Origin: a virus | Taxonomy: Duplodnaviria > Caudoviricetes | IMG/VR virus record: IMGVR_UViG_3300038393_001982 | Location: 1-52,040 of that record | DNA length: 52,040 nt | Reading direction: 5' to 3' (one strand) | Shown: positions 6,047-52,040 of the stretch, in pieces | Numbering within the stretch: the stretch's first letter is position 1 | Layout: the number at the start of each line of letters is the position of its first letter | Program-made: the position numbers and the translations under genes | The notes under the pieces: generated by a model | Told to the model about the DNA's origin: nothing | The model's input: only the letters and a program-made list of their open reading frames with translations | Databases searched by the model: none

Positions 6047-6085
6047 GTGCTGGTCTCCGGTCAGTTGGTGCGGTCGGGGTTGGTG

Positions 6086-6119
6086 GCCTGGGGCGGGGGA
6101 TGGACACCCCGCCCCAGGC
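6086..6119. terminator. GC-rich hairpin between the clamp-like gene and the initiator
   Basis: gcctggggcgggg...ccccgccccaggc inverted repeat. Confidence 0.5.
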
Positions 6120-6131
6120 AGATCAGGCGAG

Positions 6132-14823: not shown

Positions 14824-14884
14824 CACCTTGGCAAGGCGGGGCCTGTGGGATAGCAGGCCCCGCCTGCCCAACACGGAGGTGCAC

Positions 14885-16156
14885 ATGGCCTACGCCGAGA
14901 AGGTGTTCAAGGTCCGCAACGGCAAGAAGACCAAGCAATACACCTGGCGCGCCCGCTTCAAACTGCCGGACGGCAGCACAGGATCAGAGCCCGGGTTCCC
15001 CACAGAGCGCACCGCCAAGGAGTACGGCGAGGAGCAGGAAGCCCTGGTACGCGCCGGCCGGTGGGTCGACCCGAGCCTCGCGCAAACCCCGTTCGGCCAG
15101 TGGGCCCGCGAGTGGATGGCCACAAAGGCGCCCCGCGGCCGCACCAACACCACGCGATGGGACCGGCTCGACACCCACATCCTCCCGCGATGGGAGCACG
15201 TGCCGCTGAACAAGGTCAACTGGTTCGAGGCGGAGGCCTGGGCGAACTCGGTTGGCGAGACACACGACGACACGACAGCCAGCCACTCGCTGACGCTGAT
15301 GTCCCAGATCATGACCGGTGCGGTAGACGCTGGGAAGATCACGGTGAACCCGTTGTTCGGTCGGCGCCGCAGTCGCACCGCGGCCATCAAAGCGAAGAAT
15401 CAGGCGAAGCAGGCGAAGAAGGCGGCCGCCCCGGCAACGCCTGAACTGGTGCTCCAACTTGCCCGTCGCGTTGGCCCACTTGACGGCATGCACATCCTCA
15501 CGACCGCCTTCCTCGGCCCGCGTTGGGGAGAGGGTGCGGCCCTCACCCGTGACAGCCGTGGCAGGCGGACGGAGCCGTGGGGGAACGGGCACTTCACCTG
15601 TCCCACGTTGCAGATCCGGCAGGAGGTTGCCGAGTACCAGACCCGGACCCCGGATGGGAAGAAGGGTCCGATGCACTTCGACCTGGAGCCGGTCAAGAAC
15701 GACGGCTCGCTGCGAGACATCGACGTTCCCCCCTTCCTCGACGCGCTACTCGACGAACATGAGAAGCGTCTGCCGTCCCACCGCAACACGCTCTTCTGTA
15801 CGCGGAAGGGCGTCTGGTGGCGGAACTCCAACTTCGGCCGGCAGGTGATGAGGCCTGGCGCGGACGGCCGCAAGGCGCTGGAGGCGTCGAAGGGGCATGC
15901 ACCGCGAGAGGCTTGGGAGCCTCTGCTGCCTGGGCTTACGATGGACTTGCTGCGGCACTTCCACGACACTCTGCAAGCGCAGATTGGAGTGAAGGACCCG
16001 CTGGCGCACGAGCAGGCGGGCCACGTTCGGTCCGGCATCAAGGCCGTGTACCAGCACCCGACGCCGGAGATGCGGAAGGAACGACTCGACGGCCTGCAAG
16101 CCGTCTTCGAGCGGGCGATGAAGAATCTGGGGTGGGAGAGAGTCTGGGAGAGTTGA
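14885..16156 (+). CDS. int: Tyrosine integrase
   Basis: Arm-binding N-terminus (WRARFK...GF.T), GPRWGE, VKN, LRH, AGH, catalytic Y in AVYQH; adjacent to attP. Confidence 0.93.
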   Translation: MAYAEKVFKVRNGKKTKQYTWRARFKLPDGSTGSEPGFPTERTAKEYGEEQEALVRAGRWVDPSLAQTPFGQWAREWMATKAPRGRTNTTRWDRLDTHILPRWEHVPLNKVNWFEAEAWANSVGETHDDTTASHSLTLMSQIMTGAVDAGKITVNPLFGRRRSRTAAIKAKNQAKQAKKAAAPATPELVLQLARRVGPLDGMHILTTAFLGPRWGEGAALTRDSRGRRTEPWGNGHFTCPTLQIRQEVAEYQTRTPDGKKGPMHFDLEPVKNDGSLRDIDVPPFLDALLDEHEKRLPSHRNTLFCTRKGVWWRNSNFGRQVMRPGADGRKALEASKGHAPREAWEPLLPGLTMDLLRHFHDTLQAQIGVKDPLAHEQAGHVRSGIKAVYQHPTPEMRKERLDGLQAVFERAMKNLGWERVWES

Positions 16157-16223
16157 TCTCCGAAATTCCCCCTAAATGATCTCCATCGGATGCATTGCAG
16201 CAGGTGAGGACGCCTCAAAACTA

Positions 16224-16271
16224 TGCTCTTACAAAGCAGATGTCGGCGGTTCGAAACCGTCCGCGCCCACC
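16224..16271 (+). other. attP core: 3' half of tRNA-Val(TAC)
   Basis: tgct-CTTACAA-agcag atgtc ggcgg-TTCGAAA-ccgtc cgcgccc acc: anticodon arm, T arm and acceptor 3' strand; no 5' half present. Confidence 0.88.
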
Positions 16272-16293
16272 CGTTGAACAGGCAGAACTGAGG

Positions 16294-16335
16294 CTGCGGC
16301 CCAGGTCAGGGCAGATGTCCCGGCCTGGGCCGCAG
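16294..16335 (+). terminator. Hairpin after attP core (replacement tRNA terminator)
   Basis: ctgcggcccagg...cctgggccgcag. Confidence 0.6.
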
Positions 16336-16462
16336 TTGCATATGTAGTCTGCCTGTAGGGCATCTGAGTCTGTCTGATGTCTCGCTCGGGGGAGTCCGCC
16401 CCTAAATTCCTCCCAAACGATCATGACGTTCGTGCAGGTCAGGATGGTGGGGCGACGTGGAT

Positions 16463-16495
16463 GCGCCCCCGGCCGGATGGGACGGCCGGGGGCGC
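16463..16495. terminator. 13-bp-stem hairpin
   Basis: gcgcccccggccg-gatggga-cggccgggggcgc. Confidence 0.55.
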
Positions 16496-16774
16496 TCACG
16501 CCGAGGCGGGGAGGGGTCGTCGTGGGCCACCTCGGCGCGATCATGGGCCCCCGGGCATAGGACTCCCGCGAGGCGTATAGGGATGTAGGCGTACGGTCGG
16601 CCGATGTATTCGAACATCTGTGCACTTGATCGTTTAAGCGGTTCAGTTTTGTACTAACAGCTTCTGATGTGCCGCTGACCTGCGCAAGATCTTGGGCGCC
16701 CAAGCATTCGAACGCTTCCCTACGGTTTGGTTACGGCCACCGTCGGCCGCAGTGAACGACGTACAGGGACGTGC

Positions 16775-17395
16775 ATGCCTCGGGTCGCGCCGCCATACCA
16801 GCGCGTCGCCGCGGAGATCCGCCGCAGGATCGCCAGTGGCGAATGGCCGCCCGGCTACCAGCTCCCCTCCCGGGCGAAGCTCGCCGCCGAACTCGGCGAG
16901 ACCGACGCGGCCGTGCGACTCGCGATGACGCTCTTACGGCGCCGCGGAGAACTCGAAGGGACCCAGCGGACCCGCCTGTTCGTGGCGCATCCTCCTGCTG
17001 TGCGCACCCTCCTCGACCCGGACCGGGACTGGCCGTACGCCACTGGTGACGGAGCCATCGGAACCTGCCGTGCCGACGCCGACCTTGCCGCCCGCCTCCG
17101 AGTCTCAACCGGGACCCAGCTTCGGTGGCGACGCGACGAGTGCCTCGATCCGGACTCCCGGCCCAGCCACCTCGTCACCACCTGGTGGACAGGGGAGCGG
17201 GCCCGAGCCTGGCACCGGTGCAGCGCAGAAGCCCAGCTTCACCAGCTCACAGCCGCAGAAGGGGACCAGCTCGGCCTGCCTCACGGCGTGCCGGCCTGGC
17301 TGATCCAGCGGACCCGGTACGGCAGTACCGGCCGGCCGGTCGAGACCGCCGACATGGTGCTTCCCGCCGACCGGTGGCGGGTCCGCCTGCGGTAG
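16775..17395 (+). CDS. GntR-family regulator (wHTH plus UTRA-like C-terminus; KorSA/KorA-like)
   Basis: PPYQRVAAEIRRRIASGEWPPGYQLPS..., C-terminal LGL..GVPAWLIQRTRY...GRPVETADMVLPADR. Confidence 0.85.
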   Translation: MPRVAPPYQRVAAEIRRRIASGEWPPGYQLPSRAKLAAELGETDAAVRLAMTLLRRRGELEGTQRTRLFVAHPPAVRTLLDPDRDWPYATGDGAIGTCRADADLAARLRVSTGTQLRWRRDECLDPDSRPSHLVTTWWTGERARAWHRCSAEAQLHQLTAAEGDQLGLPHGVPAWLIQRTRYGSTGRPVETADMVLPADRWRVRLR

Positions 17396-24126: not shown

Positions 24127-25662
24127 TCAGGACTCCTTCGTGGAGGTGGTGAGGTGAACGGTGATACCGGCGATGGCCTGCTCGATACGGGCGACCAGGG
24201 CGTCGGTATCCACCGGGCCGCCAGCGGCGAGCTGCTGGGCCAACGCGGTAATCGCCGCGGACTGGGCGGCCAGCTGGGTCGAGAGCGCGGCGATCTGGGT
24301 GTCTGCCTGCTTGGCGCCGTTCAGCACCTCGCCGACCGTCGGCCGGTAGCCGCTGGCCAGGACGGCGTAGTCCGGCATCGGCGCGTCCAGCAGCAGCCGC
24401 GGCAGATCCGTCCGGAGCGCGGCGAGTAGATCGTCCGCACTCTTCGCTCCGTTCAGCAGCTCCGCCACCATCGGCACGTAGCCGTCCGGCAGGGCCGCCA
24501 ACGGCACCCGGGCGGCGAGCAGTTCGTCAGGGGTCATGTCGTCCTCCTCGGGACGCGGGGCCCCGGCCTGGACCCACGCGTACAGCGGGCCGCCGGGGCA
24601 GTCGGTTTGGTAGCCGTCGCGGTGGCCGCGGATCTCGGGACCGGCCGGACCGCGCCGCTGGCAGTGCTCGATCGCGTCGCGCAGGCCGTTCAACTGCTCG
24701 GGCGTGGGCTCGGTCGACCCGGAGGACCCGAGCAGCGCGCACACCGCGTAGTGGGCCTCGTTCAGCCCGGTGTCGCCGTTGGCGGAGTTGCGGCGGGCCA
24801 AGCCGCGGCCCTCGAAGACGAAGCCGTGCTCGCACACCACGAAGCTGTAGCCGATGTCGGACCAGCCGTTGCCGTCCATGTGGCTGGCCTGGATCTTGCG
24901 TACGTAGGCTGGGCACGTTGAGTGGTCCCCGAAGGCGTACGGCTCCCCGAGGTAGTGGATTTTCACCCCGGCGCGGGGACCGGCGTACGGGGTCGAGCCG
25001 CCCGGTTCCCGCCACGGCCGGGCGCCCCATTCCTCGCGGGTGACGAGTCGCAGCCCGGCCCACTCGGCAGGGCCCTTGGGGGGCTGGGCAGCCGCCGGGG
25101 CGGTCGATCCCGCCCACGCCCGCAGATCGTCGAGCGACCCCGCATAGACGTTGGTGTCGACCGGGCTGTCCGCGTACTGATGGAACCGCCACGAAGCCTG
25201 GACCCGGGGCGAGCCGGCTGGGACGCCGTAGTCGGCGATCCACAGGAACGATCCGGCGTTATCGTCGGTGCGGTGCCACCAGTCCGTGTTGGTGTACAAC
25301 CCAACCCGGTTGTTTGGGTAGCGGGCCTTCACTGCGGCCAGCCAGGCGTTTTTCGCCGCCGTCGCCTGCGCGTCGGACACCGGCTGGCCATACGGCTCGA
25401 AATCGAGCACCAGCAGCTCGCCAGCCGGGACGTCGCCGACCACACGGCAGAAGTGGTCGACCTCGGCGGCGACCGGGTTCTCGGCGTGCAGGAAGTGGTA
25501 GTGGCCGAGCGGGATGCCGCGGCGCCGGGCCTCCGCCACTTTGGCCGCATACCCGGACTGCTCAGTGCGGGCGCCCTCGGACGCCTTCACGAACACGAAC
25601 TCGGCGTCGGTCGGTATGCCTGGCTGGTAGTCCGACAGGTCGTAGCCGCGGGCGCTGGCCAT
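24127..25662 (-). CDS. Endolysin: GH25 muramidase plus Amidase_2/PGRP plus C-terminal domain
   Basis: DLSDYQ...KASEG...YHF...LDFE...WIADY...HQY; REEWGA...IHY...GWSDIGY...EGRG...GHRD...CPG. Confidence 0.9.
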   Translation of the reverse strand: MASARGYDLSDYQPGIPTDAEFVFVKASEGARTEQSGYAAKVAEARRRGIPLGHYHFLHAENPVAAEVDHFCRVVGDVPAGELLVLDFEPYGQPVSDAQATAAKNAWLAAVKARYPNNRVGLYTNTDWWHRTDDNAGSFLWIADYGVPAGSPRVQASWRFHQYADSPVDTNVYAGSLDDLRAWAGSTAPAAAQPPKGPAEWAGLRLVTREEWGARPWREPGGSTPYAGPRAGVKIHYLGEPYAFGDHSTCPAYVRKIQASHMDGNGWSDIGYSFVVCEHGFVFEGRGLARRNSANGDTGLNEAHYAVCALLGSSGSTEPTPEQLNGLRDAIEHCQRRGPAGPEIRGHRDGYQTDCPGGPLYAWVQAGAPRPEEDDMTPDELLAARVPLAALPDGYVPMVAELLNGAKSADDLLAALRTDLPRLLLDAPMPDYAVLASGYRPTVGEVLNGAKQADTQIAALSTQLAAQSAAITALAQQLAAGGPVDTDALVARIEQAIAGITVHLTTSTKES

Positions 25663-41165: not shown

Positions 41166-42455
41166 TTAGGCCGCCATGTCGAGGGCGGTGATGAGGTGGG
41201 GGCGCCAGAGCGCTTCGGTGGTGACCACGGCGTACCGGCCGCCGTCGAGGGAGTGGTCGGCGACCTTGATCGGCTTGTCCTTGCCGTCCTCGGTGGCTTT
41301 CGGGTCCCAGGAGTAGCCGGGTGCCTCACGGATGAAGCCCTCGCACCGGTCGCTGACCAGCAGTTGGCCCTCGGCAAGGAGGGTGGCCAGCAGGGTGATG
41401 CCGCGGGAGACGTCGTTGTCGGCTTCCTGCGCGGTCAGCCCGTCGTGGTGGAGCTGGGTGCGGAAGCTGGCAGCGGCCGGGTCAACGACCACCCACTCCG
41501 GAAGCTGGGAGGCGGTCTGGGGGGCGTGGGCGGTGGTGTGCAGCCAGTCGCGCATGCTCGCCGACAGCTGGCCGTCGGTGAGCCGGTTCTGGGAGTGCTG
41601 GGGGTCGTGACGCCACTCGTCCATGAGGTACAGGCGGCGGTCGGCGCCGAGGCCGAGGAGCAGGCCGGTGCTGGGGTTGGTGGTGCCGTAGTCGACGCCG
41701 AGGGCGAGGACGCGCTGCATGGCCGGCATCTGGTGCCATGGGATGACGTGCCGGTCGGGGTCCCACATGTCGAAGATCGCGCCCTCGGCGGCGACCCACT
41801 CGCCGAGGATGAACCGCCGGTACCACAGGCCGGTGTAGGTGCGGCGGTACCGTTCCTTGACGGACTCGGCGAGGGCCGGGTTGTCGTCGAGCTGGAAGTG
41901 CCAGACCCGCCAGTCCGTCAGCTGCCCGAGCCGGTCGAGGAACCGGCGCCGGACCCAGTGCGCGGGGCTGTCCGGGTTGGTGGTGCAGAAGATCTGCGAG
42001 CCCTCGACCGAGCAGCGGCCGAGGAGCTGCTGGAAGAAGTCCTCCGAGATGACGGTCAACTCGTCGACGTACGCGCCCGCGCAGGTCAGACCGCGCAAGA
42101 CCTTCTCGGCTTTGGCGTCGGAGGCGCCGAGGACGTGGATCGTCCGGCCGAGGATGGTCGCTGTGGACGCGCCGTTGGTGTACCGGGTCAGCCGGGCGAG
42201 GGGCCCCATGATGTCGGGGTCCATGAGCGGCCCGAAGACGTTCCGGTTCAGCGAGTCGCGGGTGCGGCCGACGACCACCAGCTCGCCGCCGCGGGGCGCC
42301 GTGGCAACGTAGATCAGCCAGCGCAGCAGGGAGACGATCGTCTTGCCGCTGCGGATGCTGCCCTCGGCGAGGTTGACGAACGCGGTGCTGTTGACGACGT
42401 AGTCGAGCTGCTTGCGGCCGAGGCCGAAGCGGCCGGCGAGGTCATGGAGCATCAC
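41166..42455 (-). CDS. terL: Terminase large subunit (PBSX-like)
   Basis: EGSIRSGKT Walker A, YVDE Walker B, TTNP, GVDYG, DH..DGGRY. Confidence 0.95.
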   Translation of the reverse strand: MMLHDLAGRFGLGRKQLDYVVNSTAFVNLAEGSIRSGKTIVSLLRWLIYVATAPRGGELVVVGRTRDSLNRNVFGPLMDPDIMGPLARLTRYTNGASTATILGRTIHVLGASDAKAEKVLRGLTCAGAYVDELTVISEDFFQQLLGRCSVEGSQIFCTTNPDSPAHWVRRRFLDRLGQLTDWRVWHFQLDDNPALAESVKERYRRTYTGLWYRRFILGEWVAAEGAIFDMWDPDRHVIPWHQMPAMQRVLALGVDYGTTNPSTGLLLGLGADRRLYLMDEWRHDPQHSQNRLTDGQLSASMRDWLHTTAHAPQTASQLPEWVVVDPAAASFRTQLHHDGLTAQEADNDVSRGITLLATLLAEGQLLVSDRCEGFIREAPGYSWDPKATEDGKDKPIKVADHSLDGGRYAVVTTEALWRPHLITALDMAA

Positions 42456-42990
42456 CCGCCCCCTCGTCTGAGGCCGCCTCCTGCTGCTCGTTCCATACGG
42501 CGGTGAGTCCGGTCATCAGCTTGCCGAGCATGCTGCGGGCGTTGTCGATGCCGTTCTCCTCGGCGGGCGGGCACAGCTTGAGGGATCGGTCGATGGCCAT
42601 GCCGGCGGTCGCCATCAGGTTCTTCTTGTCGGCGGCCGGGGCTTCGTCGAGGGTTCGTTCCTCGAACGTGTTGTCCTTGCCGCCGAACGCGTAGACGATG
42701 GTCGGCTGCCACATGCGCGCGCGGAGGTTCTCGGCGTCGGTCAGGAGCTGCTCGGCGAGCGCCAGGCGACGGGAAGCGAGGTCCTGTCGGCGGGTCTCGG
42801 TGGCTTCGGCGAGTTGCGGCCCGCGGTTGAAGCTGAGGCCGAGCTCGGCGGCGAGGCCGGACACCCGGCGGGCGGAGAGCCCGGTGGCCCGCATGATGTC
42901 GTTTCGGCCGAGGCCCTGGGCGTGGAGCCGGGTGATCTCGGCGCGGTCCTCATCGGCGGCGAGGCGGCGATCGGCGGGCGGCACGGTCAC
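42442..42990 (-). CDS. Terminase small subunit (HTH)
   Basis: ITRLHAQGLGRNDIMRATGLS HTH; immediately upstream of terL. Confidence 0.8.
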   Translation of the reverse strand: MTVPPADRRLAADEDRAEITRLHAQGLGRNDIMRATGLSARRVSGLAAELGLSFNRGPQLAEATETRRQDLASRRLALAEQLLTDAENLRARMWQPTIVYAFGGKDNTFEERTLDEAPAADKKNLMATAGMAIDRSLKLCPPAEENGIDNARSMLGKLMTGLTAVWNEQQEAASDEGAGDAP

Positions 42991-42997
42991 CCCCAGG

Positions 42998-43171
42998 TCA
43001 GAGCTGCTTCGTGCCGGGGTCGTTCTCGGGGAACTCGTAGCCTTCGCCGGCGATGCCGCGGGGGTCGTCGGGGGTGCATTCGACCCAGCGTCGGGTGTCG
43101 AGGGCCCAGAAGTAGCAGCCGCCACCGCGCGGGAGCGGCGGGCGGTAGTTGGGGTCTTCGGGGGTGCTCAA
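42998..43171 (-). CDS. Hypothetical small protein
   Basis: GGAGGA RBS, TTG start, STPEDPNYRPPLPRGGGCYFW... Confidence 0.5.
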   Translation of the reverse strand: MSTPEDPNYRPPLPRGGGCYFWALDTRRWVECTPDDPRGIAGEGYEFPENDPGTKQL

Positions 43172-43188
43172 CTGGTCCTCCGGGATGG

Positions 43189-43464
43189 TCAGGCGGCGGC
43201 TTGTCCGACGCGCCAGCTTGGGTGTCGGCCGCCGCGGGCGGGCCGGTCGGCGCCGTGCTGCCAGGTGTGCAGTTCGGCGCGGGCGGCGGTGGGCAGGTGG
43301 TAGAGGTGTGGGCCGCCGGGGATGGGCAGCGCTTCGATCAGGCCCTCGAATACCCAGCGCTTGATCGTGGACTCGGAGACACCGAAGGTGGCGGCGGTGC
43401 TGGCACGGTCGGCGATGTCCTGCGGGCTGATCTGATCGAGCGCAGGGTTCGGGTAGACGGCCAC
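43189..43464 (-). CDS. HTH DNA-binding protein
   Basis: TAATFGVSESTIKRWVFEGLI; GGGAGG RBS. Confidence 0.75.
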   Translation of the reverse strand: MAVYPNPALDQISPQDIADRASTAATFGVSESTIKRWVFEGLIEALPIPGGPHLYHLPTAARAELHTWQHGADRPARGGRHPSWRVGQAAA

Positions 43465-43486
43465 GGTGGCACCTCCCCGGGCAGCA

Positions 43487-43521
43487 CGAAGGCCCCGCGC
43501 GGTTTCGCTGCGGGGCCTTCG
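43487..43521. terminator. Hairpin upstream of the late operon
   Basis: cgaaggccccgc...gcggggccttcg. Confidence 0.55.
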
Positions 43522-43651
43522 GGGCGTTTCTGGGCAGGGACTACCTGCTGCAAGCGAGGTTACGACGGGCGGCGATCACTGCGCAAGCGGCTACCTCGCG
43601 AGGCCTCGGCCGGGCAGTGCGGACGGGCGGGGGGCTGAAGGCTCCGCGGGC

Positions 43652-44161
43652 TCACAGGCCGCGCTGTGCGGCGGCGATCGTCTCGGCGACGGCGAGGACG
43701 GCCAGGAGCTGGGCCTGGCCGGGTTCGGTCTCCAGGTAGCCCGTGGCCATCAGTTCGGCGAGCCGCGCGGCCTGGCCGACGGCCACGGTCAGAGCGTCGT
43801 GGGGCTCATGGGCTCCGAGGAACCTGGCGCTCCCCTCGGCGAGCCAGGCATGTGCGGCGCGCAGGGTGGCAGCGATGTCACCGCCGTGGTCCTCAAGGCG
43901 CTGCGTGCTCATCGATCCGAGCCACTCGTCGAAGTGCGACTCGACCACGGCGGGGTAGGGCCGGTGGTCGATCAGGGTGCCGCACGGGACCAGGAACCGG
44001 TCCACGTCGCCGGGCTTGCCCTTCCATCCTGACAGCCAGCCACGGGCCCGGTCGCACACGCCGAGCCGGTACTCCAGGGGGCGGCCGGCCTTGAGGCTGT
44101 GGCGTTCGATGACGTGGGTGGCGGGGGCGGTGCAGGTGGTGAGCTGTCGGAGGACGGGCAT
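43652..44161 (-). CDS. Hypothetical protein
   Basis: Open frame, N-terminal C..PATH...C motif. Confidence 0.6.
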   Translation of the reverse strand: MPVLRQLTTCTAPATHVIERHSLKAGRPLEYRLGVCDRARGWLSGWKGKPGDVDRFLVPCGTLIDHRPYPAVVESHFDEWLGSMSTQRLEDHGGDIAATLRAAHAWLAEGSARFLGAHEPHDALTVAVGQAARLAELMATGYLETEPGQAQLLAVLAVAETIAAAQRGL

Positions 44162-44254
44162 GCGGTTCCCCTTGGTGTGGTGGGCGTTCGGATGGTCGCA
44201 TGGAGCGGCCCGCCCCGTCAGTCGAAGGGGCGGGCCGGGTGTTGGTGGTGGTGT

Positions 44255-44401
44255 TCAGCTGTGCGGGTTGGTGGTGGGCTGCGGGTCCGGCGCGGGGGTG
44301 AGCCAGACGCTGATGCCGGCGCCTCGCTCCTCGACGCGCGGCTCGGGCAGGGCGGGCTGGGGCTGCGGGTCGGGCTGGGCGGTGCCGTTAGCGAGGGCCA
44401 T
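44255..44401 (-). CDS. Small Pro-rich protein
   Basis: GGGAGA RBS; MALANGTAQPDPQPQP... Confidence 0.4.
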   Translation of the reverse strand: MALANGTAQPDPQPQPALPEPRVEERGAGISVWLTPAPDPQPTTNPHS

Positions 44402-44488
44402 GATGGTGGTCTCCCTACTCTGTGATGGGTGGTGGAGGGCCCGGGGCGGCCGGCTTGCTGGCAGGCGGTGCGGTCGCCCCGGGGCGTG

Positions 44489-44656
44489 CTACTTGGTGCA
44501 GGTGCGGGCGTGCTCGCGGGCCCGCTCGTCGGCGATGTCCCTGGTCGACTCGGCGTCGCCGGTGTTGCAGTCGCACCACCAGTGGTGGAGTTCGATCCCG
44601 CCGTAGTGGGTCACGTCCCGAATCCCGACGGTCTTGCCGGTGGCGGTGTAGTACAT
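44489..44656 (-). CDS. Small Cys/His protein
   Basis: GAGGAG RBS; WWCDC...AREHARTC. Confidence 0.6.
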   Translation of the reverse strand: MYYTATGKTVGIRDVTHYGGIELHHWWCDCNTGDAESTRDIADERAREHARTCTK

Positions 44657-44689
44657 GGCGTCTCCTCGTGGGTGGGTGGTTGGTGCCGG

Positions 44690-44896
44690 TCAGGCGGGGA
44701 GCAGGTCGTACAGACGGGTGATCTCGTCGCGAACCTTGTCGAGCTGGGTGGCGAGCTGGCGGCGCCGGTCGGGGTCGGTGGCGTCGGCGCAGGCGATCTG
44801 GAGTTCGGTGATTCGGCCCGCGGCGGCGGCGAGCTGCTGGTCGATGGTCATGGTGGTCTCCGGGTGGGTGTGGCTGGCGGGCCAGCGGTCGGTCAT
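44690..44896 (-). CDS. Small coiled-coil protein
   Basis: GAGAGG RBS; IDQQLAAAAGRITELQ...LDKVRDEI. Confidence 0.55.
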   Translation of the reverse strand: MTDRWPASHTHPETTMTIDQQLAAAAGRITELQIACADATDPDRRRQLATQLDKVRDEITRLYDLLPA

Positions 44897-44922
44897 GGCG
44901 GGTGTCCTCTCGTGTCGGTGGA

Positions 44923-45927
44923 TCATGCGGCGGTGGTGTGGCTGACGATGATCGTCCGGGCGGGGTTGTCGGGGTCGGTGCGCATGACGAACCCCTCTCG
45001 GGTGGACCACTCTCCGGTGTTGTTGGCGTTGGTGTTGGCGCTCTGACCTGCGCCAACGTTGGCAACAACGCGGGGGGCGGGGGCGCTCTCGGCCGGGGAG
45101 GGGAGTGCGGGCACGTCCTGGTGGTGGACGCCGGGCCCGTTGCCGTCCGGCGTACGGACCCCTGCGCGGACCGGGATGCGGGCCTCTGCGAGGAGGGTCC
45201 GGACAGCCTTGGTGGAGGGCTCCCAGCCGGGGTGGGAGGCGGCCAGATCGGCGGCCAGCCGGGTGAGCAGAACGGAGGTCTCGTCGGCCGCCAGAGAGGC
45301 CGTCAGCCGGTGGGCCTCGGCGGGGGTCGGAACGGCGGCCTCGGGCTCCTCCTGGTCGACCTCGTCGGCGTCGTCCGCGGGGGCGTCGCCGGTCTCCTTG
45401 GCGGGGGCCTGCTTGGTGCTCTCCGGGGTGGTGGTGTTGCCGAGAATCAGGGCGGCGATCACCCACAGGGTGAGGCCGCTGCTGATGGCGACTCCGGCGT
45501 AGTGCCGGACCACGGGAACGCCGGCCAGCAGGGTCGCGGAGACGACGGCGCATCCGGCGGCGACCAGGGCAGGATGGGTGGGCCGCTCGCCGAGGTCCTC
45601 CAGAGCCTTGGCGCGCTGCTCGGGGTCCTTGATCTGCTTCGCCTTGGCGCGCCGCTCCTTCCACGCCGCGAGCGTGTCGGCGTGCTCGGTCTTGGCGTCG
45701 ACGTGGCGGGTCCTGATCGGGGCGAGCATGCGGCGGTTGCCCTGGCGGAGCGCGGCGAGCGAGAGGCCGCCGAGGTAGGGGTGGACGGGCCGCTCCCCCT
45801 TGAGGGCTTCGAGCGCGGTGGCGCGCTCCTTGGGGTCCTTGATCTGGCGGGCCTTGGTGCGGCACTCGTTCCACGCGGCCAGGGCTTCGGCGTGCAGGGT
45901 GAGGGCGTCGGAGAGGGGGTTGGTCAT
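44923..45927 (-). CDS. Membrane protein with duplicated N-terminal module and putative C-terminal wHTH
   Basis: Two ~39-aa repeats, two TM helices, VLLTRLAADL...VRTLLAEARIPVRAGVR. Confidence 0.7.
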   Translation of the reverse strand: MTNPLSDALTLHAEALAAWNECRTKARQIKDPKERATALEALKGERPVHPYLGGLSLAALRQGNRRMLAPIRTRHVDAKTEHADTLAAWKERRAKAKQIKDPEQRAKALEDLGERPTHPALVAAGCAVVSATLLAGVPVVRHYAGVAISSGLTLWVIAALILGNTTTPESTKQAPAKETGDAPADDADEVDQEEPEAAVPTPAEAHRLTASLAADETSVLLTRLAADLAASHPGWEPSTKAVRTLLAEARIPVRAGVRTPDGNGPGVHHQDVPALPSPAESAPAPRVVANVGAGQSANTNANNTGEWSTREGFVMRTDPDNPARTIIVSHTTAA

Positions 45928-45928
45928 C

Positions 45929-46339
45929 TCAGGCTCCGATCAGGCCGTGGAGGAACGAGCCGACCACGGTGAACGGCAGGGCGAGGATCGAGCCGGAGGC
46001 GAGGCAGGCGGCGGGGAGGGTACCGCCGACGATCACGTCTTTCCACACGCGGGGCTTGGTGCCGAACAGGATGATCACGAGGATGGCGGCGGTGGCTCCG
46101 GCGCCCGCGTTGAACTGCTGGTTCATGGCGGCGGTGAGCGAGTCGCCCACGACCTTCGGCGCCTCGAAGGCTTGGCCGGCGCCCTGGGCGAACAGGCCGA
46201 ACAGGAGCATCCACCAGGCGGTGTGGTGGTCCTTGTGCTGCTCGGCGAGGGTGCCCTTGCCCCGGTGCCCGACGAGCAGCCACACCATGATTACGAGGCA
46301 CACGCCGGTGGCGGTGAACGGTCCGAGCAAGGAGGTCAT
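45929..46339 (-). CDS. Integral membrane protein (about 4 TM)
   Basis: Highly hydrophobic 136 aa; GGAG RBS. Confidence 0.75.
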   Translation of the reverse strand: MTSLLGPFTATGVCLVIMVWLLVGHRGKGTLAEQHKDHHTAWWMLLFGLFAQGAGQAFEAPKVVGDSLTAAMNQQFNAGAGATAAILVIILFGTKPRVWKDVIVGGTLPAACLASGSILALPFTVVGSFLHGLIGA

Positions 46340-46351
46340 GGTGACTCCAGG

Positions 46352-47359
46352 TCAGTAGATGTGGAGGGCGGAGAGGAGGGGGGTGATGCCGGTGGCGACG
46401 GCGATGCCGGAGGCGACCGGGATCCGGGCGAGGAGCAGGAAGAAGAGGGGGCGGGCGCCGCGGACCTCGCTCACGCGCAGGCGGCCCCGGTCCCGCAGGT
46501 GGGTGTCGAGTCCCCAGCCGAAGGTGGCGAGGATCAGGCCGACGAACGGGCCGCCGGGCGTGATGATCTGCACGAGCCCGGTGGCGTAGCCGCCGACCGC
46601 AGAGATCGCGGTGAGCACGCACCAGCGCCGGAACCGGCGGACGCGGTCAGAGGTGCCGGCGGCGCGGGCCGCGCGGCGGCGCTGGCGCCGGGCCCGGGTC
46701 GCAGCCTCCCGCTTGTCGGCGAGCCGTTGCTGGCGGTGCCGCCGGGCCCGCTGCTCCGGGGTCTCCCCGGCCGCGGCCAGCTCGGCGTCCTCCCGGGCGC
46801 GGCGCCGCTGCTTGTCGATCTCCCGCTCGGTCTCCAGGCGGGCGGCCCGCTCCTCGGGTGTCTCGCTGATCCGGGACGCGAGCAGGTCGACCATGCCGAC
46901 CAGGTCGTCTCGGCGGTGGCCGGGGTTGAGGGCGTCCTCGACGCGGTGGCGCTCGGCGCGCTGTGCGGTGCTCTCCCCCGCTGCGGCGAACGCGGCGTCA
47001 CGCTCGGCGCGCTGAGCGGCTATCAGGGTCTCGTGCTCGACCTGTTCGCGGGCCGATCGCTGGGCCTCGGTCTCGGTGAGGAGCTGGCCAATCTGCGAGG
47101 CGATCGCCGTGGCCTGCTCGGCGAAGATCTCGCGAGCCGGGGCCCAGAACGCCTGAGCGGCCTCCTCAATCGAGGGCGGTCCGGCGGGCCCGACCGGGAT
47201 CGGGGTGTGGACGGTCGGGTCCGGCTGGCCCGGGGTGCGGGGGCCGTCCTTGCGCCACCACTCGGCGGGCTCGGCGTCGGGGACGTGCCCGGTCTTGGGC
47301 TTGACCGTGGCCGGCCCGGCGGTGGGCGGGTAGGTCGGTGGGGGCGGGATGGTGGTCAC
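46352..47359 (-). CDS. Coiled-coil membrane protein
   Basis: Pro-rich N-terminus, repeated ET(P)EQRA/E helices, 2-3 C-terminal TM helices. Confidence 0.7.
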   Translation of the reverse strand: MTTIPPPPTYPPTAGPATVKPKTGHVPDAEPAEWWRKDGPRTPGQPDPTVHTPIPVGPAGPPSIEEAAQAFWAPAREIFAEQATAIASQIGQLLTETEAQRSAREQVEHETLIAAQRAERDAAFAAAGESTAQRAERHRVEDALNPGHRRDDLVGMVDLLASRISETPEERAARLETEREIDKQRRRAREDAELAAAGETPEQRARRHRQQRLADKREAATRARRQRRRAARAAGTSDRVRRFRRWCVLTAISAVGGYATGLVQIITPGGPFVGLILATFGWGLDTHLRDRGRLRVSEVRGARPLFFLLLARIPVASGIAVATGITPLLSALHIY

Positions 47360-47520
47360 CGCTCCCCCTTCCGGGGGCCGCGGCGGTCGCCGGGGTGGAG
47401 CCGGTCGGCGGTGCCGGCGTCGATCTTGCGGATCTCGCGTTCGCGGCGGGCCCGCTCGCGCGGGGTACGGCCGGTCGGGCTGGGGGTGGTCTGTCCGGTG
47501 AGCTTGGACCAGAGGCCCAT
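47356..47520 (-). CDS. Small basic protein
   Basis: MGLWSKLTG...RERARRERE; coupled to neighbours. Confidence 0.55.
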   Translation of the reverse strand: MGLWSKLTGQTTPSPTGRTPRERARREREIRKIDAGTADRLHPGDRRGPRKGER

Positions 47521-47522
47521 GG

Positions 47523-47675
47523 CTATCTCCAGGTGATGACGAGGATGAGGCAGGTGGCCCAGAGGGCGGTGGTGCCGGCGAGGCGGAGTGCTTGGCGGAC
47601 CGGGTGGTCGGCGGCGCGGTACAGGCCGGCGTAAGCGAGGGCGGCGGGGACCGCCCACCACAGGACGGCGGCCAT
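47523..47675 (-). CDS. Small 2-TM protein (not in the ORF track)
   Basis: MAAVLWWAVPAALAYAGLY...LAGTTALWATCLILVITWR. Confidence 0.6.
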   Translation of the reverse strand: MAAVLWWAVPAALAYAGLYRAADHPVRQALRLAGTTALWATCLILVITWR

Positions 47676-47678
47676 GGG

Positions 47679-48740
47679 CTAGTCGCCGACGATGGCGCGG
47701 CGTACCTCGGTCGCCTCGCGACGGGAGAGCCCCAACTGGAGCTGCAAGGTGCCGATGGTGACGGGCCGGCCGGAGCGCCCTTTGAGGGCCTCGCGGTTGA
47801 GGCGTCGGGCGGCGGCCAGTAGCTGGGGCCTGGTCATGGTGGCGGGGTCCGGGGTTACCACCGAGGTGACCACTTCGCGTGCCAGCCGCTTGGCAGGCAC
47901 GGTGGTCATCTCGCGGTCACCGTGGTGGTCATGCAGGTGGTCATCCTGCGGCGTCGAGGTGACCAGCCCGGCTGCCACCAACTGGGCGGTGAGCTGGTCG
48001 TCTGTGGCGTCGGGCATGATGCGGCGTGCCTCGGCGAGAGCGGTGTCGTAGTCGCCGTGGGTCGGCTCAGCGGCGGGCAGCTCGTAGGCGGCGTACATGT
48101 CCGCGGTGGCGCCCTCGACTCGGGCGAGCTCGCGCTGGACGGCGGCGGTCGCGAGGCGGGCGTGCGCGGCGGAGAACTGGGCTTCGACCCACTGCTGTGA
48201 GCGGTCGTCGAGTTCAACGCTGAAGCTGTGGAGTGCCATGGTCCACAGGCCCTTGGCGAGGGCGGAGACGAGGGCGCCGATGATGCCGACGGCGACGCCG
48301 GCGGCGATGGAGTCGTGGCCGACTCGGAGGATGCCGTGCGTGCAGACGGCGGCCATGGCGATCACGAGGGCGATGTAGCCAGCGCGGCGCGGGAGCGTGG
48401 CCCTGCGGCGGTCGTAGCGGCTCAGCCACTCCAGGGCCATGCAGGAGACCCAGCCGAGGTCGAAGACGGTGGCGGCGCCGTAGGCGATGGCGGGGTGGAC
48501 GGCCTCTGCGAGGAGGTCGCCGATGCTGGCGGTGGACCAGGCGATCGCGCCCGTGACGGTGAGGGCGGTTGCTCCGGTGACGGCGCCGCGGACGAGGCGG
48601 TCCCAGTCGCGGGGCGGAACGGGGACGGCGGTGGCGTACCGCTCGGTGACCATCTGGGTGATGCCGTTGATGGTGTGCGGGATCTCCCGCTCCTGCTGTA
48701 CCAGCCGGGTGCGGCGGAAGGTACCGTTCTGGTGGGCCAT
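47679..48740 (-). CDS. spdB: SpdB-like plasmid spread protein (4 TM, coiled coil, C-terminal wHTH)
   Basis: PHT..G...VPVPPRDWDR...WSTASIG.LL...AY..A..FD..W..CM..EWL.RYD...AHG...VS.LAKG.W...LDDRSQQWV matches my recollection of pIJ101 SpdB. Confidence 0.75.
   Translation of the reverse strand: MAHQNGTFRRTRLVQQEREIPHTINGITQMVTERYATAVPVPPRDWDRLVRGAVTGATALTVTGAIAWSTASIGDLLAEAVHPAIAYGAATVFDLGWVSCMALEWLSRYDRRRATLPRRAGYIALVIAMAAVCTHGILRVGHDSIAAGVAVGIIGALVSALAKGLWTMALHSFSVELDDRSQQWVEAQFSAAHARLATAAVQRELARVEGATADMYAAYELPAAEPTHGDYDTALAEARRIMPDATDDQLTAQLVAAGLVTSTPQDDHLHDHHGDREMTTVPAKRLAREVVTSVVTPDPATMTRPQLLAAARRLNREALKGRSGRPVTIGTLQLQLGLSRREATEVRRAIVGD
47855..47944. repeat. Phased GGTGGTCA(T) repeats inside spdB
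   Basis: Direct copies at 47901, 47912 (imperfect), 47924, 47936; inverted copies at 47855, 47867. Confidence 0.7.
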
Positions 48741-48818
48741 GGGAGTTGCGTCTCCGGTGGTCAAGGGCCTGGGCTGGGGCTGCGATCCCCACGCCTGGGC
48801 CCGTTTTATTGGGGGCGG

Positions 48819-48995
48819 TCAGAGGTGCTGGTCGATGAGGTAGCGGAGGACGGCGGAGCGGCTGGTGCCGTCGGCGGTGGCCTGTTGGAGTTTGGTGAGC
48901 TGGGGTCCGTAGAGGGTGATGCCGCCGATGACCTTCTTGGTCTGGGGCGGGGCGGGCATGCCGGGCTGGGCCGGCTTCTCGTCGGCGGTGTGCAT
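48819..48995 (-). CDS. Ribbon-helix-helix protein
   Basis: IGGITLYGPQLTKLQQATADGTSRSAVLRYLIDQHL. Confidence 0.7.
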   Translation of the reverse strand: MHTADEKPAQPGMPAPPQTKKVIGGITLYGPQLTKLQQATADGTSRSAVLRYLIDQHL

Positions 48996-49092
48996 ATGCA
49001 CAAGGTAGCCGATGTGCATATGCACAGCAAGCCCTTCGTGCATATGCATGTCGATTGGCTGAACTGCACAGGTGGTCGACGTATGCATATGC
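48991..49092. promoter_or_regulatory. TGCATATGCA palindrome array
   Basis: Copies at 48991, 49015, 49039 (24-bp period) and 49084 (9/10 match). Confidence 0.85.
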
Positions 49093-49110
49093 GCGCCCTA
49101 CCCTGGCGCC

Positions 49111-49311
49111 ATGGTCAGTCGCGCGAAGGATAGTCACACCACGAACAGAGTCGTCCGCATCGGCGATGACGACTGGGAGGACCTCGGCACCCGGGCCGGC
49201 ACGCGCAACCGGGCGCAGGTCATCCGGGACCTGGTCGCCTGGTACCTCCGCCGACCGGGGGCGAAGCTGCCGGAGCGCCCGCCGGCAAGGACGGAGCCGG
49301 CGGGCGACTGA
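49111..49311 (+). CDS. Ribbon-helix-helix protein (probably leaderless)
   Basis: TNRVVRIGDDDWEDL...RAQVIRDLVAWYL; TACCCT 6 nt before ATG. Confidence 0.75.
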   Translation: MVSRAKDSHTTNRVVRIGDDDWEDLGTRAGTRNRAQVIRDLVAWYLRRPGAKLPERPPARTEPAGD

Positions 49312-49314
49312 CGG

Positions 49315-49950
49315 TCAGGCTGCGGCGAGTTCGCTGAGGGTCTGTTCGACGCGGTCGGCGTACTCGTCGGTGGTGAGGACGGCGCGACAGTCGGGGGCGG
49401 AGCATTCGCGCATCCCGTCGGGGCGGACCGTGACGGTCATGAGGTGGCAGCGGGGGCAGACGTGCCGGCGGGCGGGTCCGGTCTGGAGGGGCCCGCCGCA
49501 TGCTCGGTTGAGGTGGCTGTGCAGACGGCCGATCTCGTCGGCGAGGTCCCGGGCGTACGCGCGGCTGGCGGCGAAGTCGAGGTGCAGCAGCAGGGTCTTC
49601 ACCGCGCGGGAGACGGTCACCTCTCGGTCGTGGCCGGCCGGACGGACCCAGGCCGACCAGTCGTTGGCGCGCTGCCGGTCGTCGATGACGGCGCGGGCCC
49701 ACTCCGCAAGGAGGTCGAGGCCGGGGGTGTCGTCCTGGTCGCCGTGTTCGTCGTGGACGGCGGGCGCGGTGGGGCCGATCAGGGAGAGCACGTCGACGCG
49801 GCACGGGAGGGGTGCGGTGCGGGTGGCGCCGGAGACGCGGGCTCCGCGGCGGCCGGAGCCGGGCAGCAGGGCGAGGTGCGTGAGGGTGATGAGCTCGGGG
49901 AGCTGCTGGAGCTGGGTGCGGAGGCGGTCGAGGTGCGGGGCGGGGAGCAT
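49315..49950 (-). CDS. Zn-finger protein at the end of the early operon (possible late-gene regulator)
   Basis: APLPCRVDVL...CPRC...CSAPDC. Confidence 0.65.
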   Translation of the reverse strand: MLPAPHLDRLRTQLQQLPELITLTHLALLPGSGRRGARVSGATRTAPLPCRVDVLSLIGPTAPAVHDEHGDQDDTPGLDLLAEWARAVIDDRQRANDWSAWVRPAGHDREVTVSRAVKTLLLHLDFAASRAYARDLADEIGRLHSHLNRACGGPLQTGPARRHVCPRCHLMTVTVRPDGMRECSAPDCRAVLTTDEYADRVEQTLSELAAA

Positions 49951-50049
49951 GTCCGGTCTCCTGTGCGGTGCTGGGCGGTATGGTGATCGGACTGTGTGGG
50001 GCGCCCTGGCCGTGGTGGGTTCGGGGGCGCCCCTTCGTCGTGTCGGGGG

Positions 50050-50250
50050 TCAGCCTCGGCCGTGCAGGGACCAACGGATCTGGTCGGCGGCAGCCTGATC
50101 GGCCCGGGTCTGGGCGGTCAGCTCGGCGACCTGCTCCCAGGTGGCAGTGGTCTGGGCGTTCAACCGGGCGGTGCGGCGGCCAGAGATGATGACGTAGATG
50201 AGGGCCCCGGTGGAGAAGGCGAGCGAACCAAGGGCGAGTGCGAGGTGCAT
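50050..50250 (-). CDS. Small membrane protein
   Basis: N-terminal TM helix, GAGGAG RBS. Confidence 0.55.
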   Translation of the reverse strand: MHLALALGSLAFSTGALIYVIISGRRTARLNAQTTATWEQVAELTAQTRADQAAADQIRWSLHGRG

Positions 50251-50389: not shown

Positions 50390-50841
50390 GGCTGGGCTTC
50401 GGGGGTCGGGCAGCAGCTGGCGCAGGGGGTGGTTGAAGCGAGGGCTTCGCGGATCTCCATCCGGAGTGCCGCGGCGGTGTTGGACGCACATCCCTGATAG
50501 CGATGGAGCACCGTCTCGGCGGCGGCGATGCGGGCCTCGGCCTGCTCAGCGCGGGCGGTCGTCTCGCAGGAGCCGAGGTCGACTGGCCAGCCGTCCGTAA
50601 GCCATGCGGGGGCGACGCCGTGGTCGGTCCAGCCGCAGTGGCGCTGGCCGATCTCGTAGCCGTGCCGGGCCCACATGCGGGCTTCGTCGCGCTGTTCGGT
50701 GAGCTGGGCGACCAGGCGCCGGAGCTGGCCGAGTTCGTTCTCGGCGGCGCGCCGGTCGGCCTCGGCCTTCGTGGCGCGGATGGTGGCCTCGTCCCGCATC
50801 CGGGTGAGTTGCTGCTGGTAGGTCTCCTGTTCGGGGATCAC
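50386..50841 (-). CDS. Coiled-coil hypothetical protein
   Basis: EARMWARHGYEIGQRHCGWTDHGVAPAWL. Confidence 0.6.
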   Translation of the reverse strand: MIPEQETYQQQLTRMRDEATIRATKAEADRRAAENELGQLRRLVAQLTEQRDEARMWARHGYEIGQRHCGWTDHGVAPAWLTDGWPVDLGSCETTARAEQAEARIAAAETVLHRYQGCASNTAAALRMEIREALASTTPCASCCPTPEAQP

Positions 50842-51170
50842 GCGGCTCTCCTTTGGCGTCGGGCGGTGGCTCTGCGGGCGGCGCTCTTGAGGCGCATGGC
50901 TTCACGGCAGTCGTCGCAGGCGGGTTCGTGCTGGCGTTGGTGGCGGCGGTAGCCGGCGATGGTGCCGCAGCCGATACGGGTGAGGAGTCGGCGGCGGTGG
51001 CCTATGTCGACTGCGTTCGCGGCGTTGGTGGCGCCGATCTTGGTGTAGATCCGTGCAAGGTGGGTTTTGACGGTGTCCTCGGTGAGGTAGAGCTGGCGGC
51101 CAATCTCGGCGTGGGTGCGGCCTGCTGCGATGAGCTGGAGGATCTGGCGCTGCCGGTCGGTGAGGGTCAC
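50838..51170 (-). CDS. LuxR-type HTH fused to a Cys/His motif
   Basis: LTDRQRQILQLIAAGRTHAEIGRQLYLTEDTVKTHL; CGTIAGYRRH...ACDDC. Confidence 0.8.
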   Translation of the reverse strand: MTLTDRQRQILQLIAAGRTHAEIGRQLYLTEDTVKTHLARIYTKIGATNAANAVDIGHRRRLLTRIGCGTIAGYRRHQRQHEPACDDCREAMRLKSAARRATARRQRRAA

Positions 51171-51355: not shown

Positions 51356-51732
51356 TGCGCAGCCTGCAAGTTGATCGGCTCCCAGATCGCCGTGATCGTC
51401 CGAGCGCGCTCGTTCAGCCATTTCCGAACGGCCGGCTCGTCGGCCTCGGTGACGACGCACGAGGTAGACCGCAGAATCGCCTTGCGCTGAAGAACCCAGA
51501 AGACCTGGAGCACGTCTGCGGGCACTTCTTGGTCAGGCTCGTAGTCGTCGGGGTCGAAGCGCTGCCAGTCCCAGCGGAACACGAGGTTGAGGTCGGGGTC
51601 CTCGGCGCCCCAGTCCTGGTAGAAGTCGGTCCAGGACTCGTAGGACGTGTGGAGTCCTTCACCGGCACGGGCGTAGTAGTTGCCCTGGGTGCAGTAGTAC
51701 GGGTGGTCAATCTCCCAGAGGTGGCGGGTCAC
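51352..51732 (-). CDS. Hypothetical protein (5' part also at 1-311)
   Basis: HLWEIDHPYYC..GNY...DLNLVFRWDW...QRK. Confidence 0.7.
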   Translation of the reverse strand: MTRHLWEIDHPYYCTQGNYYARAGEGLHTSYESWTDFYQDWGAEDPDLNLVFRWDWQRFDPDDYEPDQEVPADVLQVFWVLQRKAILRSTSCVVTEADEPAVRKWLNERARTITAIWEPINLQAAQ

Positions 51733-52040
51733 TGCGGGTCTCCTTCGGGTTGGTAGCGGCGCTTGGCGCCGTGGCAGAGGGCGATGGTGATGAGCGCGGG
51801 GCCGGCGGCGAGCAGGCCGCCGGCCACGAGCAGCAGGAACGGGGTCGTCACCCGGCGGCCCGCAGGATGGCGTTGGCCAGGCTGACGGCGAGATCGGGGA
51901 TCTCCATCTCGTCGATGCCGACCTCGTTCTCGATGGCCTCCAGGGCTGCGGTGAGGATCTCGGTCAGCTGCTCGTGGTCCACGGTGGTCTCCTCCGGGGT
52001 GGGGCCGCCGCCCGGGGGGGCGGCGGCGGGACGGGTGGTC
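51422..52040 (+). repeat. Terminal direct repeat, copy 2 (circular overlap)
   Basis: Same 619-bp sequence as 1-619. Confidence 0.97.

Follow-up and report, generated by a model that had tools for sequence, protein, structure and literature searches.

The 52,040-nucleotide virus record IMGVR_UViG_3300038393_001982 (Duplodnaviria; Caudoviricetes), analyzed here over its whole length and called the window, carries a set of minus-strand genes at 43652-49311, between its early genes and its terminase genes. We found that this set contains a common, conserved and translationally coupled membrane-protein cassette of temperate Streptomycetaceae phages and prophages, led by a gene whose product resembles SpdB, a spread protein of Streptomyces conjugative plasmids. 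In the reading that we favor, with a probability of roughly 0.35, the cassette encodes an Spd-like DNA-handling membrane complex that would act at hyphal cross-walls with a borrowed motor. This role is favored because of the SpdB homology, the restriction of the family to filamentous hosts and its use beside TraB-like genes in other elements. The features of the region, in which ribbon-helix-helix is abbreviated RHH and transmembrane TM, are the following:

49072-49311, plus strand: RHH (Arc-like) repressor gene, matching phrog_6506 'Arc-like repressor' (E 6e-5)
48990-49094, between the RHH genes: array of four palindromic operator-like sites, GTGCATATGCAC and variants, at 48990, 49014, 49038 and 49083
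48819-49088, minus strand: RHH-like gene, first of the minus-strand set, with a strand-helix-helix pattern in the last 40 residues
47679-48740, minus strand: SpdB-like membrane protein, 353 aa, matching phrog_35187 (E 2.7e-68)
47523-47675, minus strand: open reading frame (ORF) for a hydrophobic peptide of 50 aa with two hydrophobic stretches
47356-47520, minus strand: ORF for a basic peptide of 54 aa with 15 Lys and Arg
46352-47359, minus strand: 335-aa protein with a Pro-rich N-terminus, an Arg/Glu/Ala-rich helical middle and C-terminal TM segments
45929-46339, minus strand: ORF for a 136-aa protein with about four TM segments
44923-45927, minus strand: 334-aa protein with a duplicated N-terminal helical motif, two TM segments, an acidic linker, a winged-helix-like domain and a conserved C-terminal beta element
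44690-44926, minus strand: 78-aa soluble helical protein, its start overlapping the preceding stop by 4 nt
44489-44656, minus strand: 55-aa protein with 3 Cys and 4 His, loosely spaced
44255-44401, minus strand: 48-aa protein, loosely spaced
43652-44161, minus strand: 169-aa protein with 3 Cys and 8 His, loosely spaced

Every gene that the initial annotation had listed in this minus-strand set was recovered, with a high GC content at third codon positions (GC3). Between 48740 and 44690 the genes are separated by gaps or overlaps of -4 to +12 nt, and below 44690 the intergenic gaps grow to 33-187 nt. To place the set among its relatives, we used 133 related loci, 67 from IMG/VR and 66 from species-representative genomes of Streptomyces, Kitasatospora and Peterkaempfera; at least five prophages are present in both sets (e.g., L014/L082 and L017/L084), so the loci are not all independent. 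The three small genes at 43652-44656 had no tblastn relatives across these 133 loci and, because of this and of their loose spacing, they probably lie outside the conserved unit. No cassette protein matched Pfam, NCBIfam or PADLOC above threshold, and a megablast search of 43000-49400 against phage records returned no match.

The 353-aa protein had been called SpdB-like, and profile-profile comparison with shuffles as controls bore out the call, identifying it as a remote homolog of pIJ101 SpdB over the domain with four TM helices. An hhalign comparison of 266 family sequences with 120 SpdB homologs gave a probability of 95.4% (E 1.7e-8, score 65.2, 135 columns) and aligned residues 58-199 of the window protein with SpdB residues 12-146, which covers all four TM helices and the next helix. 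Against this score, the reversed template reached 24.6, all 20 column shuffles stayed at or below 17.4 and all ten block shuffles at or below 27. The link is seen only with the 266-sequence profile, as a comparison of smaller profiles (32 vs 24 sequences) gave a probability of only 5%, and a direct BLASTP alignment with pIJ101 SpdB was marginal (E 0.009, 30% identity, 92 residues).

The Pfam copy that we searched, in which the 353-aa protein had no match, lacked both PF27080 and PF27079, named SpdB_N and HTH_SpdB_C, respectively, in the Atlas. The precomputed assignments place PF27080 (Pfam 38.1) on 9 of the 120 family members listed, one of them 73% identical to the window protein, and both PF27080 and PF27079 on 120 of the 120 pIJ101 SpdB homologs listed. 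In a six-frame comparison by hidden Markov models (HMMs), which covered the small set of ORFs from the window and six fetched loci, the best non-family match of the family HMM was pIJ101 SpdB (E 0.0015), and the best non-self match of the SpdB HMM was the family member of plasmid pFSYMDG01 (E 0.035). Because of the precomputed PF27080 assignments, the broad-profile hhalign result and these six-frame matches, we regard the N-terminal membrane domain as a distant homolog of SpdB_N.

An exhaustive HMMER profile search outlined a sharply bounded family of 337 representatives (50%-identity clusters) at E<=1e-3, 312 of which matched at E<=1e-10. The ATG at 48740 as the start of the window gene agrees with the homologs. 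Searched by tblastn, pIJ101 SpdB had no match among phage records and matched 12 plasmid records, all of the close pIJ101 type. DUF2637 (PF10935) matched neither the 353-aa protein at E<=0.1 nor the six frames of the window at E<=10. Most family members bear the NCBI label 'protein transporter Sec31', which none of our results supports and which looks like a misnomer. In five family members (P0081, P0095, P0097, P0099 and P0117), the SpdB-like four-TM domain is fused to a GIY-YIG-type nuclease region (T5orf172/MUG113), an arrangement confirmed in P0099.

The AlphaFold2 model of the SpdB-like protein (mean pLDDT 84.3) opens with a beta-hairpin of very high confidence (residues 11-40), after which come four TM helices (46-173) and a long helix (179-219). 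The remainder is modeled as a small helical domain, a disordered linker (264-291) and a three-helix C-terminal bundle (304-351). Foldseek searches with this model gave no match in the PDB at E<=0.001. Among the predicted viral structures of BFVD, Gp25 of phage phiC31 ranked second (E 7.9e-4); behind it, at E 0.0018-0.079, came proteins labeled DUF2637 or 'membrane' from phages of Gordonia, Mycobacterium and Rhodococcus, as well as a Thermus phage protein. A complex prediction for four copies of residues 1-225 scored 0.26, below the mark of 0.42, a value that speaks neither for nor against oligomerization. In the model of the 334-aa protein (mean pLDDT 78.3), the duplicated N-terminal helical motif is followed by two TM helices and the acidic linker, and residues 202-267 adopt an H-b-H-H-b-b winged-helix topology at pLDDT 95-98. 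The short PDB matches of this model were nearly all to winged-helix domains, none at E<=0.001 (Foldseek), and the protein likely contains a winged helix. The models thus give two cassette proteins, the SpdB-like and the 334-aa protein, predicted domains of DNA-binding type on membrane anchors.

The surroundings of the SpdB-like gene are conserved as well. The initial annotation had set the cassette between the early genes and the terminase and had proposed a survey of this synteny; the position was confirmed, and the same arrangement upstream of terS, the terminase large subunit gene (TerL) and the portal gene was found in many prophages. With the window TerL as the sole query and a threshold of E<=1e-4, the SpdB-like gene is followed on its own strand, after 2.7-8.7 kb, by a TerL-like match in 32/67 viral and 31/66 genomic loci. 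The succession of SpdB-like gene, TM genes and terminase recurs in dozens of prophages at only 40-60% identity.

Membrane proteins are concentrated on one side of the gene. For the 110 loci with at least 3 kb on either side, the four positions downstream held genes with a predicted TM segment in 338 of 440 cases versus 49 of 440 upstream, and genes with at least two TM segments in 253 of 440 versus 2 of 440. The TM calls come from a crude hydropathy window and the gene calls from a GC3 heuristic, so that the robust part of these counts is the downstream/upstream contrast. A protein of 90-210 aa with at least three TM segments is encoded within the next four genes in 93 of the 110 loci. Where at least 3 kb was available downstream (118 loci), the very next gene encodes a TM protein in 106 cases, a TM peptide of at most 70 aa in 42, and follows at a distance of at most 15 nt in 102 (median -1).

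All named sources of the family are filamentous actinomycetes (Streptomyces, Kitasatospora, Peterkaempfera and, for one plasmid, Protofrankia). When 401 genomes were sampled evenly across the class, six contained the family, and all six measured 7.6-10 Mb. One related prophage lies in the chromosome of a tractable strain, Streptomyces venezuelae ATCC 10712 (L109). Phages SF3 and TurkishDelight carry the SpdB-like gene with neither downstream TM genes nor a nearby terminase. Overall, the family is common in prophages, normally without a translocase, and rare in the conjugative elements of our sample.

The other cassette genes show no sign of plasmid ancestry. The initial annotation had described a plasmid-type Spd operon; this description was too broad, as a single gene resembles a plasmid Spd protein, and the comparisons made with plasmids gave no similarity for the 334-aa and 136-aa proteins. 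The 334-aa protein matches phrog_34550 (E 7.6e-14) and has 65 homologs, nearly all from Kitasatospora and none with an assigned name. It is encoded downstream of the SpdB-like gene in 12/67 viral and 13/66 genomic loci, and tblastn found no match to it among 72,556 plasmid records or 50,697 phage records. Ahead of its TM helices, a motif of about 40 residues, LxAWxExRxKAxQIKDPxxRAxALExLxGERPxHP, is duplicated (residues ~11-50 and ~80-118). The 136-aa protein has no pairwise similarity to the DUF3307 four-TM neighbor of the family member in plasmid pADI95-16c, nor to the 170-aa protein at the same position in locus L107; the three are positional analogues only.

Relatives of the 335-aa protein stand at the same position in 5/67 viral and 2/66 genomic loci, and its weak match to TIGR04222 is below threshold (20.2 bits vs a cut-off of 43). 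For the 54-aa basic peptide, tblastn relatives were found at the same position in L006, L007 and L077, the last of which also holds the single tblastn relative of the 78-aa protein.

At the head of the cassette, the divergent RHH pair and a putative four-site operator would form a dedicated repressor switch in the style of Arc and Mnt. Two divergent RHH genes had been annotated here. The plus-strand gene stood up through its Arc-like PHROG match, and relatives of 76-82% identity occupy the same divergent position in six loci. The minus-strand gene, which had no Pfam, PHROG or PDB sequence match, is RHH-like by its strand-helix-helix pattern, and we infer its class from that pattern. PDB sequence searches with both candidates returned nothing meaningful.

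The four copies of GTGCATATGCAC comprise two exact ones, one with 1 mismatch and one with 2, spaced by 24, 24 and 45 bp. All four matches of the operator pattern in the window fall in the array; shuffled sequences gave a mean of 1.01 matches and reached four in 3 of 100 cases. Likewise, the six related loci with both RHH genes all carry two or three exact copies of TGCATATGCA in the same divergent region, and this sequence is found nowhere else in them across 13-21 kb. A plus-strand start at 49072 would fall inside the operator array, for which reason ATG 49111 (66 aa) is the likely true start; for the minus-strand gene it is likely ATG 48959 (46 aa). The long starts of both genes cross operators, which makes these shorter ones more plausible. 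A scan of 42900-50100 revealed no sigma-70-like promoter and no intrinsic terminator, although such a scan covers Streptomyces promoters poorly. The cassette is co-directional with the late genes, and the tight control suggested by the array resembles the kil/kor logic of Streptomyces plasmids.

As the initial annotation had stated, the window encodes no FtsK/TraB translocase, a point on which profile, tblastn and Walker A searches agree. PF01580 (FtsK_SpoIIIE) had no match at E<=0.01 in the six frames, and the best tblastn match of four TraB-like proteins (pIJ101 Tra, a 753-aa protein of locus L013 and two plasmid ATPases) was at E 0.085. Of three six-frame matches to the Walker A pattern, only that of TerL (42339-42362) is within a called gene, and one of the other two is broken by a stop codon.

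PF01580 was also absent (E<=0.01) from 46 of the 50 IMG/VR records with the SpdB-like gene that were searched, out of the 67 viral records; two exceed the cut-off. One of these is L013, a locus resembling an actinomycete integrative and conjugative element (AICE), in which a UTRA/GntR regulator, a NUDIX gene, the SpdB-like gene, three further genes and the 753-aa FtsK_SpoIIIE protein (26.3 bits) follow one another. This order fits the AICE layout set out in the review by te Poele et al. 2008 (PMC2440964). Directly after the TraB-like gene, L013:16544-17623 encodes a Pycsar-effector-like TM protein (PycTM, E 4e-11) together with an Mrr-type restriction endonuclease. The small plasmids pADI95-16c and pFSYMDG01 each encode, downstream of the family member, a large P-loop ATPase whose FtsK or type IV secretion system matches are weak, and a relative of the large pADI95-16c ATPase is found downstream of the SpdB-like gene in L052. 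Three host genomes with related prophages contain 5-10 FtsK_SpoIIIE matches each. These host FtsK-family genes make it possible for a phage to borrow a motor but prove nothing.

In the Spd-like reading, the RHH switch would open in lytic growth or upon induction, and the cassette proteins would assemble in the cytoplasmic membrane. A DNA-binding membrane complex would thus be made during lytic development. The complex might bind double-stranded phage DNA, as SpdB2 of pSVH1 does, and hold it at hyphal cross-walls, from where it could pass into neighboring compartments. As the phage encodes no motor, one of the FtsK, SffA or TraB type would have to come from the host or a resident element. The excerpted text of Thoma et al. 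2015 (PMC4447253) describes pSVH1 SpdB2 as an oligomeric protein that binds double-stranded DNA and peptidoglycan, forms pores and is required for intramycelial spreading and pock formation. A bolder version is doubtful to us: phage double-stranded DNA would traverse the cross-walls naked, with no need of virions, and a single infection or induction could colonize or lysogenize a whole mycelium. Its motor would be a FtsK/TraB-type translocase of the host or of an AICE or, more daringly still, the phage's own terminase, which holds the only Walker A motif found within a called gene and whose gene lies just downstream of the cassette in many relatives.

Several observations weigh against the Spd-like reading. 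According to the same excerpts, plasmid spreading requires TraB together with the Spd proteins (Thoma et al. 2015, PMC4447253), and the window, like most of the searched phage records with the gene, is without it. The fold relatives include proteins of Mycobacterium, Gordonia, Rhodococcus and Thermus phages (the E 0.0018-0.079 matches above), which points toward a function that does not depend on hyphae. Of the roughly ten genes in the cassette, a single one has a relative among plasmid Spd proteins. HMMER alone does not connect the 337-representative family, with its sharp edge, to SpdB, and by sequence the C-terminal domain is not HTH_SpdB_C (probability 0.1% in hhalign of the C-terminal parts).

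Some of the same evidence would suit a membrane tether, which might fix phage DNA at the cytoplasmic membrane while it replicates or as concatemers, to organize replication or for hand-over to the terminase, with no passage between compartments; membrane protein p16.7 of phage phi29 is an analogue. Two membrane-anchored proteins with predicted DNA-binding-type domains, the location of the cassette directly upstream of terS-TerL in about half of the loci and the fold relatives in phages of non-filamentous hosts all accord with a tether, which in addition works without a motor. However, the sequence family is limited to filamentous hosts and also occurs in AICE- and plasmid-type transfer modules, a tether has no obvious need for four or five different membrane proteins, and SF3 and TurkishDelight keep the gene with neither TM genes downstream nor the terminase close by. 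We consider a tether possible, if on the unlikely side. Exclusion, an alternative already raised in the initial annotation, seems to us unlikely: the membrane proteins would block superinfecting phage DNA, or the entry and spread of a conjugative plasmid or AICE, in that they would sit in the Spd/TraB route or poison it. Prophage membrane proteins frequently exclude other elements, and kinship with a plasmid spread component would permit such interference. Yet PADLOC models of anti-phage defense or exclusion matched none of the ten cassette and neighboring proteins tested (E<=0.01), the cassette stands in line with the lytic late genes and far from the integrase/regulator region (14-23 kb), it is preceded by an operator-rich switch rather than by a stand-alone lysogenic promoter, and several coupled genes are conserved together.

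A role in the envelope or in lysis, with the SpdB-like protein as a holin-like pore or envelope remodeler, is very improbable. It could draw on the pore formation by SpdB2, which gave T7 lysozyme access to the wall in E. coli (Thoma et al. 2015, PMC4447253, excerpted text), and on the abundance of small TM proteins in the cassette. Against it, DNA-binding-type domains are unexpected in holins, and the phage has a lysis cassette elsewhere, at a distance of about 20 kb, in which the endolysin gene (24127-25662) is followed by genes for a 74-aa two-TM protein and an 88-aa C-terminally anchored protein. Finally, the cassette might be the decaying remnant of an AICE or plasmid that inserted into this one phage genome and does nothing for the phage, as the family also occurs in the AICE-like module and in small plasmids. 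The initial annotation had named such decay as a possible objection, but the GC content and skew are those of the rest of the genome, the frames are all intact and coupled, no rep, integrase or TraB remnants are adjacent, and dozens of divergent prophages keep the same gene order. Because of this conserved synteny, we regard decay as close to refuted.

The rest of the genome frames these readings. The window spans an entire virus record, complete by CheckV (100%), whose ends are directly repeated: bases 1-619 are repeated exactly at 51422-52040, a 619-bp direct terminal repeat that leaves a unique genome of 51,421 bp. The ORFs at 308-561 recur at 51729-51982. The GC content is uniform, at 0.64-0.75 along the whole window, and nearly all genes are on the minus strand. 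The sequencing runs listed for it were of soil and rhizosphere metagenome DNA, with no RNA among them. PHROG matches identify a tyrosine-type integrase (14828-16156), RecT, a RusA-like resolvase, a DNA methyltransferase, TerL (41166-42455), a portal, a major head protein, a tape measure protein and the endolysin. Because of this gene set (integrase, TerL, portal, head, tape measure and endolysin), the record is classed, from its gene content, as a temperate, virion-forming siphophage. Along the direction of transcription, early and DNA-metabolism genes (from 13.5 kb to 0, then from 51.4 to 49.3 kb) are followed by the cassette, terS-TerL, head, tail and lysis genes. Its host genus is likely Kitasatospora, because the closest relatives of two cassette proteins are mostly from this genus and the nearest prophage found, L077, is in a Kitasatospora genome (72% identity).

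Next to the cassette, the packaging side begins with the following genes:

41166-43464, minus strand: helix-turn-helix (HTH) gene (43189-43464), a 57-aa ORF, a gene in the small-terminase position (42442-43125) and TerL (41166-42455)

TerL matches phrog_2 'terminase large subunit' (E 5e-48), and phrog_5536 is matched in the same interval at E 1e-56. The gene for the 91-aa HTH protein directly precedes the terminase genes; the protein gives weak matches of the BldC-family, MerR-like and excisionase kinds, and a copy 72% identical to it occupies the same position in L077. On the early side, a 110-aa protein (50838-51170) matches sigma-factor region-4/LuxR-type and WhiB-like PHROGs and may be a fused small regulator. 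Two long gaps contain no called gene, 5505-6131 (627 nt) and 16157-17287 (1131 nt); the latter comes after the integrase gene and could hold attP.

The idea of spreading is itself not new. In the excerpts of Thoma et al. 2015 (PMC4447253), spread of phage DNA by SpdB2 homologues is already proposed for phiC31 and VWB, whose genome papers are references 34 and 35 there. We found neither an experimental test of this idea nor a description of the conserved downstream cassette and its RHH/operator switch in the literature covered, which did not extend to subscription journals. Our analysis adds the limits of the family to which the SpdB-like gene belongs (337 clusters at 50% identity, with a sharp boundary) and the place of this gene in a conserved cassette of several membrane-protein genes, which in a sub-group (6 of the 133 fetched loci and the window) is headed by a conserved RHH/operator switch. 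It also adds the occurrence of the cassette in prophages of tractable strains. How phages handle the compartmented, multi-genome hyphae of Streptomyces-like bacteria is poorly understood, and for virion-free movement of phage DNA the obvious candidate is a relative of the plasmid spread machinery that a phage itself carries. If the function were tethering or exclusion instead, a role would still be assigned to a gene set that ranks among the commonest uncharacterized ones in actinophages.

Among known systems, the divergent pair at the head of the cassette can be compared with immI of phage P22, where the small RHH repressor genes mnt and arc-ant diverge around an operator region. In the window, the Arc-like gene and the putative RHH gene likewise flank operator-like sites, and, as in P22, one of the two is the first gene of the operon that would be controlled. 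P22 immI, however, controls an antirepressor, whereas the cassette genes encode membrane proteins, and only one of the two window proteins has a family match.

The DUF2637 (PF10935) proteins, represented by Gordonia phage Jace and Mycobacterium phages MrMagoo and Pharaoh, are neighbors of the SpdB-like protein at the level of fold, and a DUF2637 cluster is also its language-model neighbor at 0.89. They differ from it in giving no HMM match and in having hosts that include non-filamentous genera.

A further comparison is with phiC31 Gp25, which we take to be the 'SpdB2 homologue' of Thoma et al. 2015 (PMC4447253, excerpted text, in which the gene is not named). Like the window protein, it is phage-encoded, has four TM segments, an acidic linker and a C-terminal HTH-like end, and its gene lies late in the early region, ahead of the packaging genes. 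No significant sequence match links it to the SpdB-like family (HMM E 0.0068, over the C-terminal part only), and in phiC31 gp26-28 have no predicted TM segments, so that the run of downstream TM genes is missing there.

Finally, the window protein shares with pIJ101 SpdB and pSVH1 SpdB2 a four-TM N-terminal domain, a helix or linker and a small C-terminal helical domain, as well as a gene in a coupled operon with small hydrophobic proteins and filamentous actinomycete hosts. Unlike them, it adds a highly conserved N-terminal beta-hairpin (residues 11-40), and its C-terminal domain is not recognizable as HTH_SpdB_C. Moreover, while SpdB and SpdB2 belong to conjugative plasmids or AICEs with TraB, the window gene belongs to a virion-forming phage and has no TraB partner.

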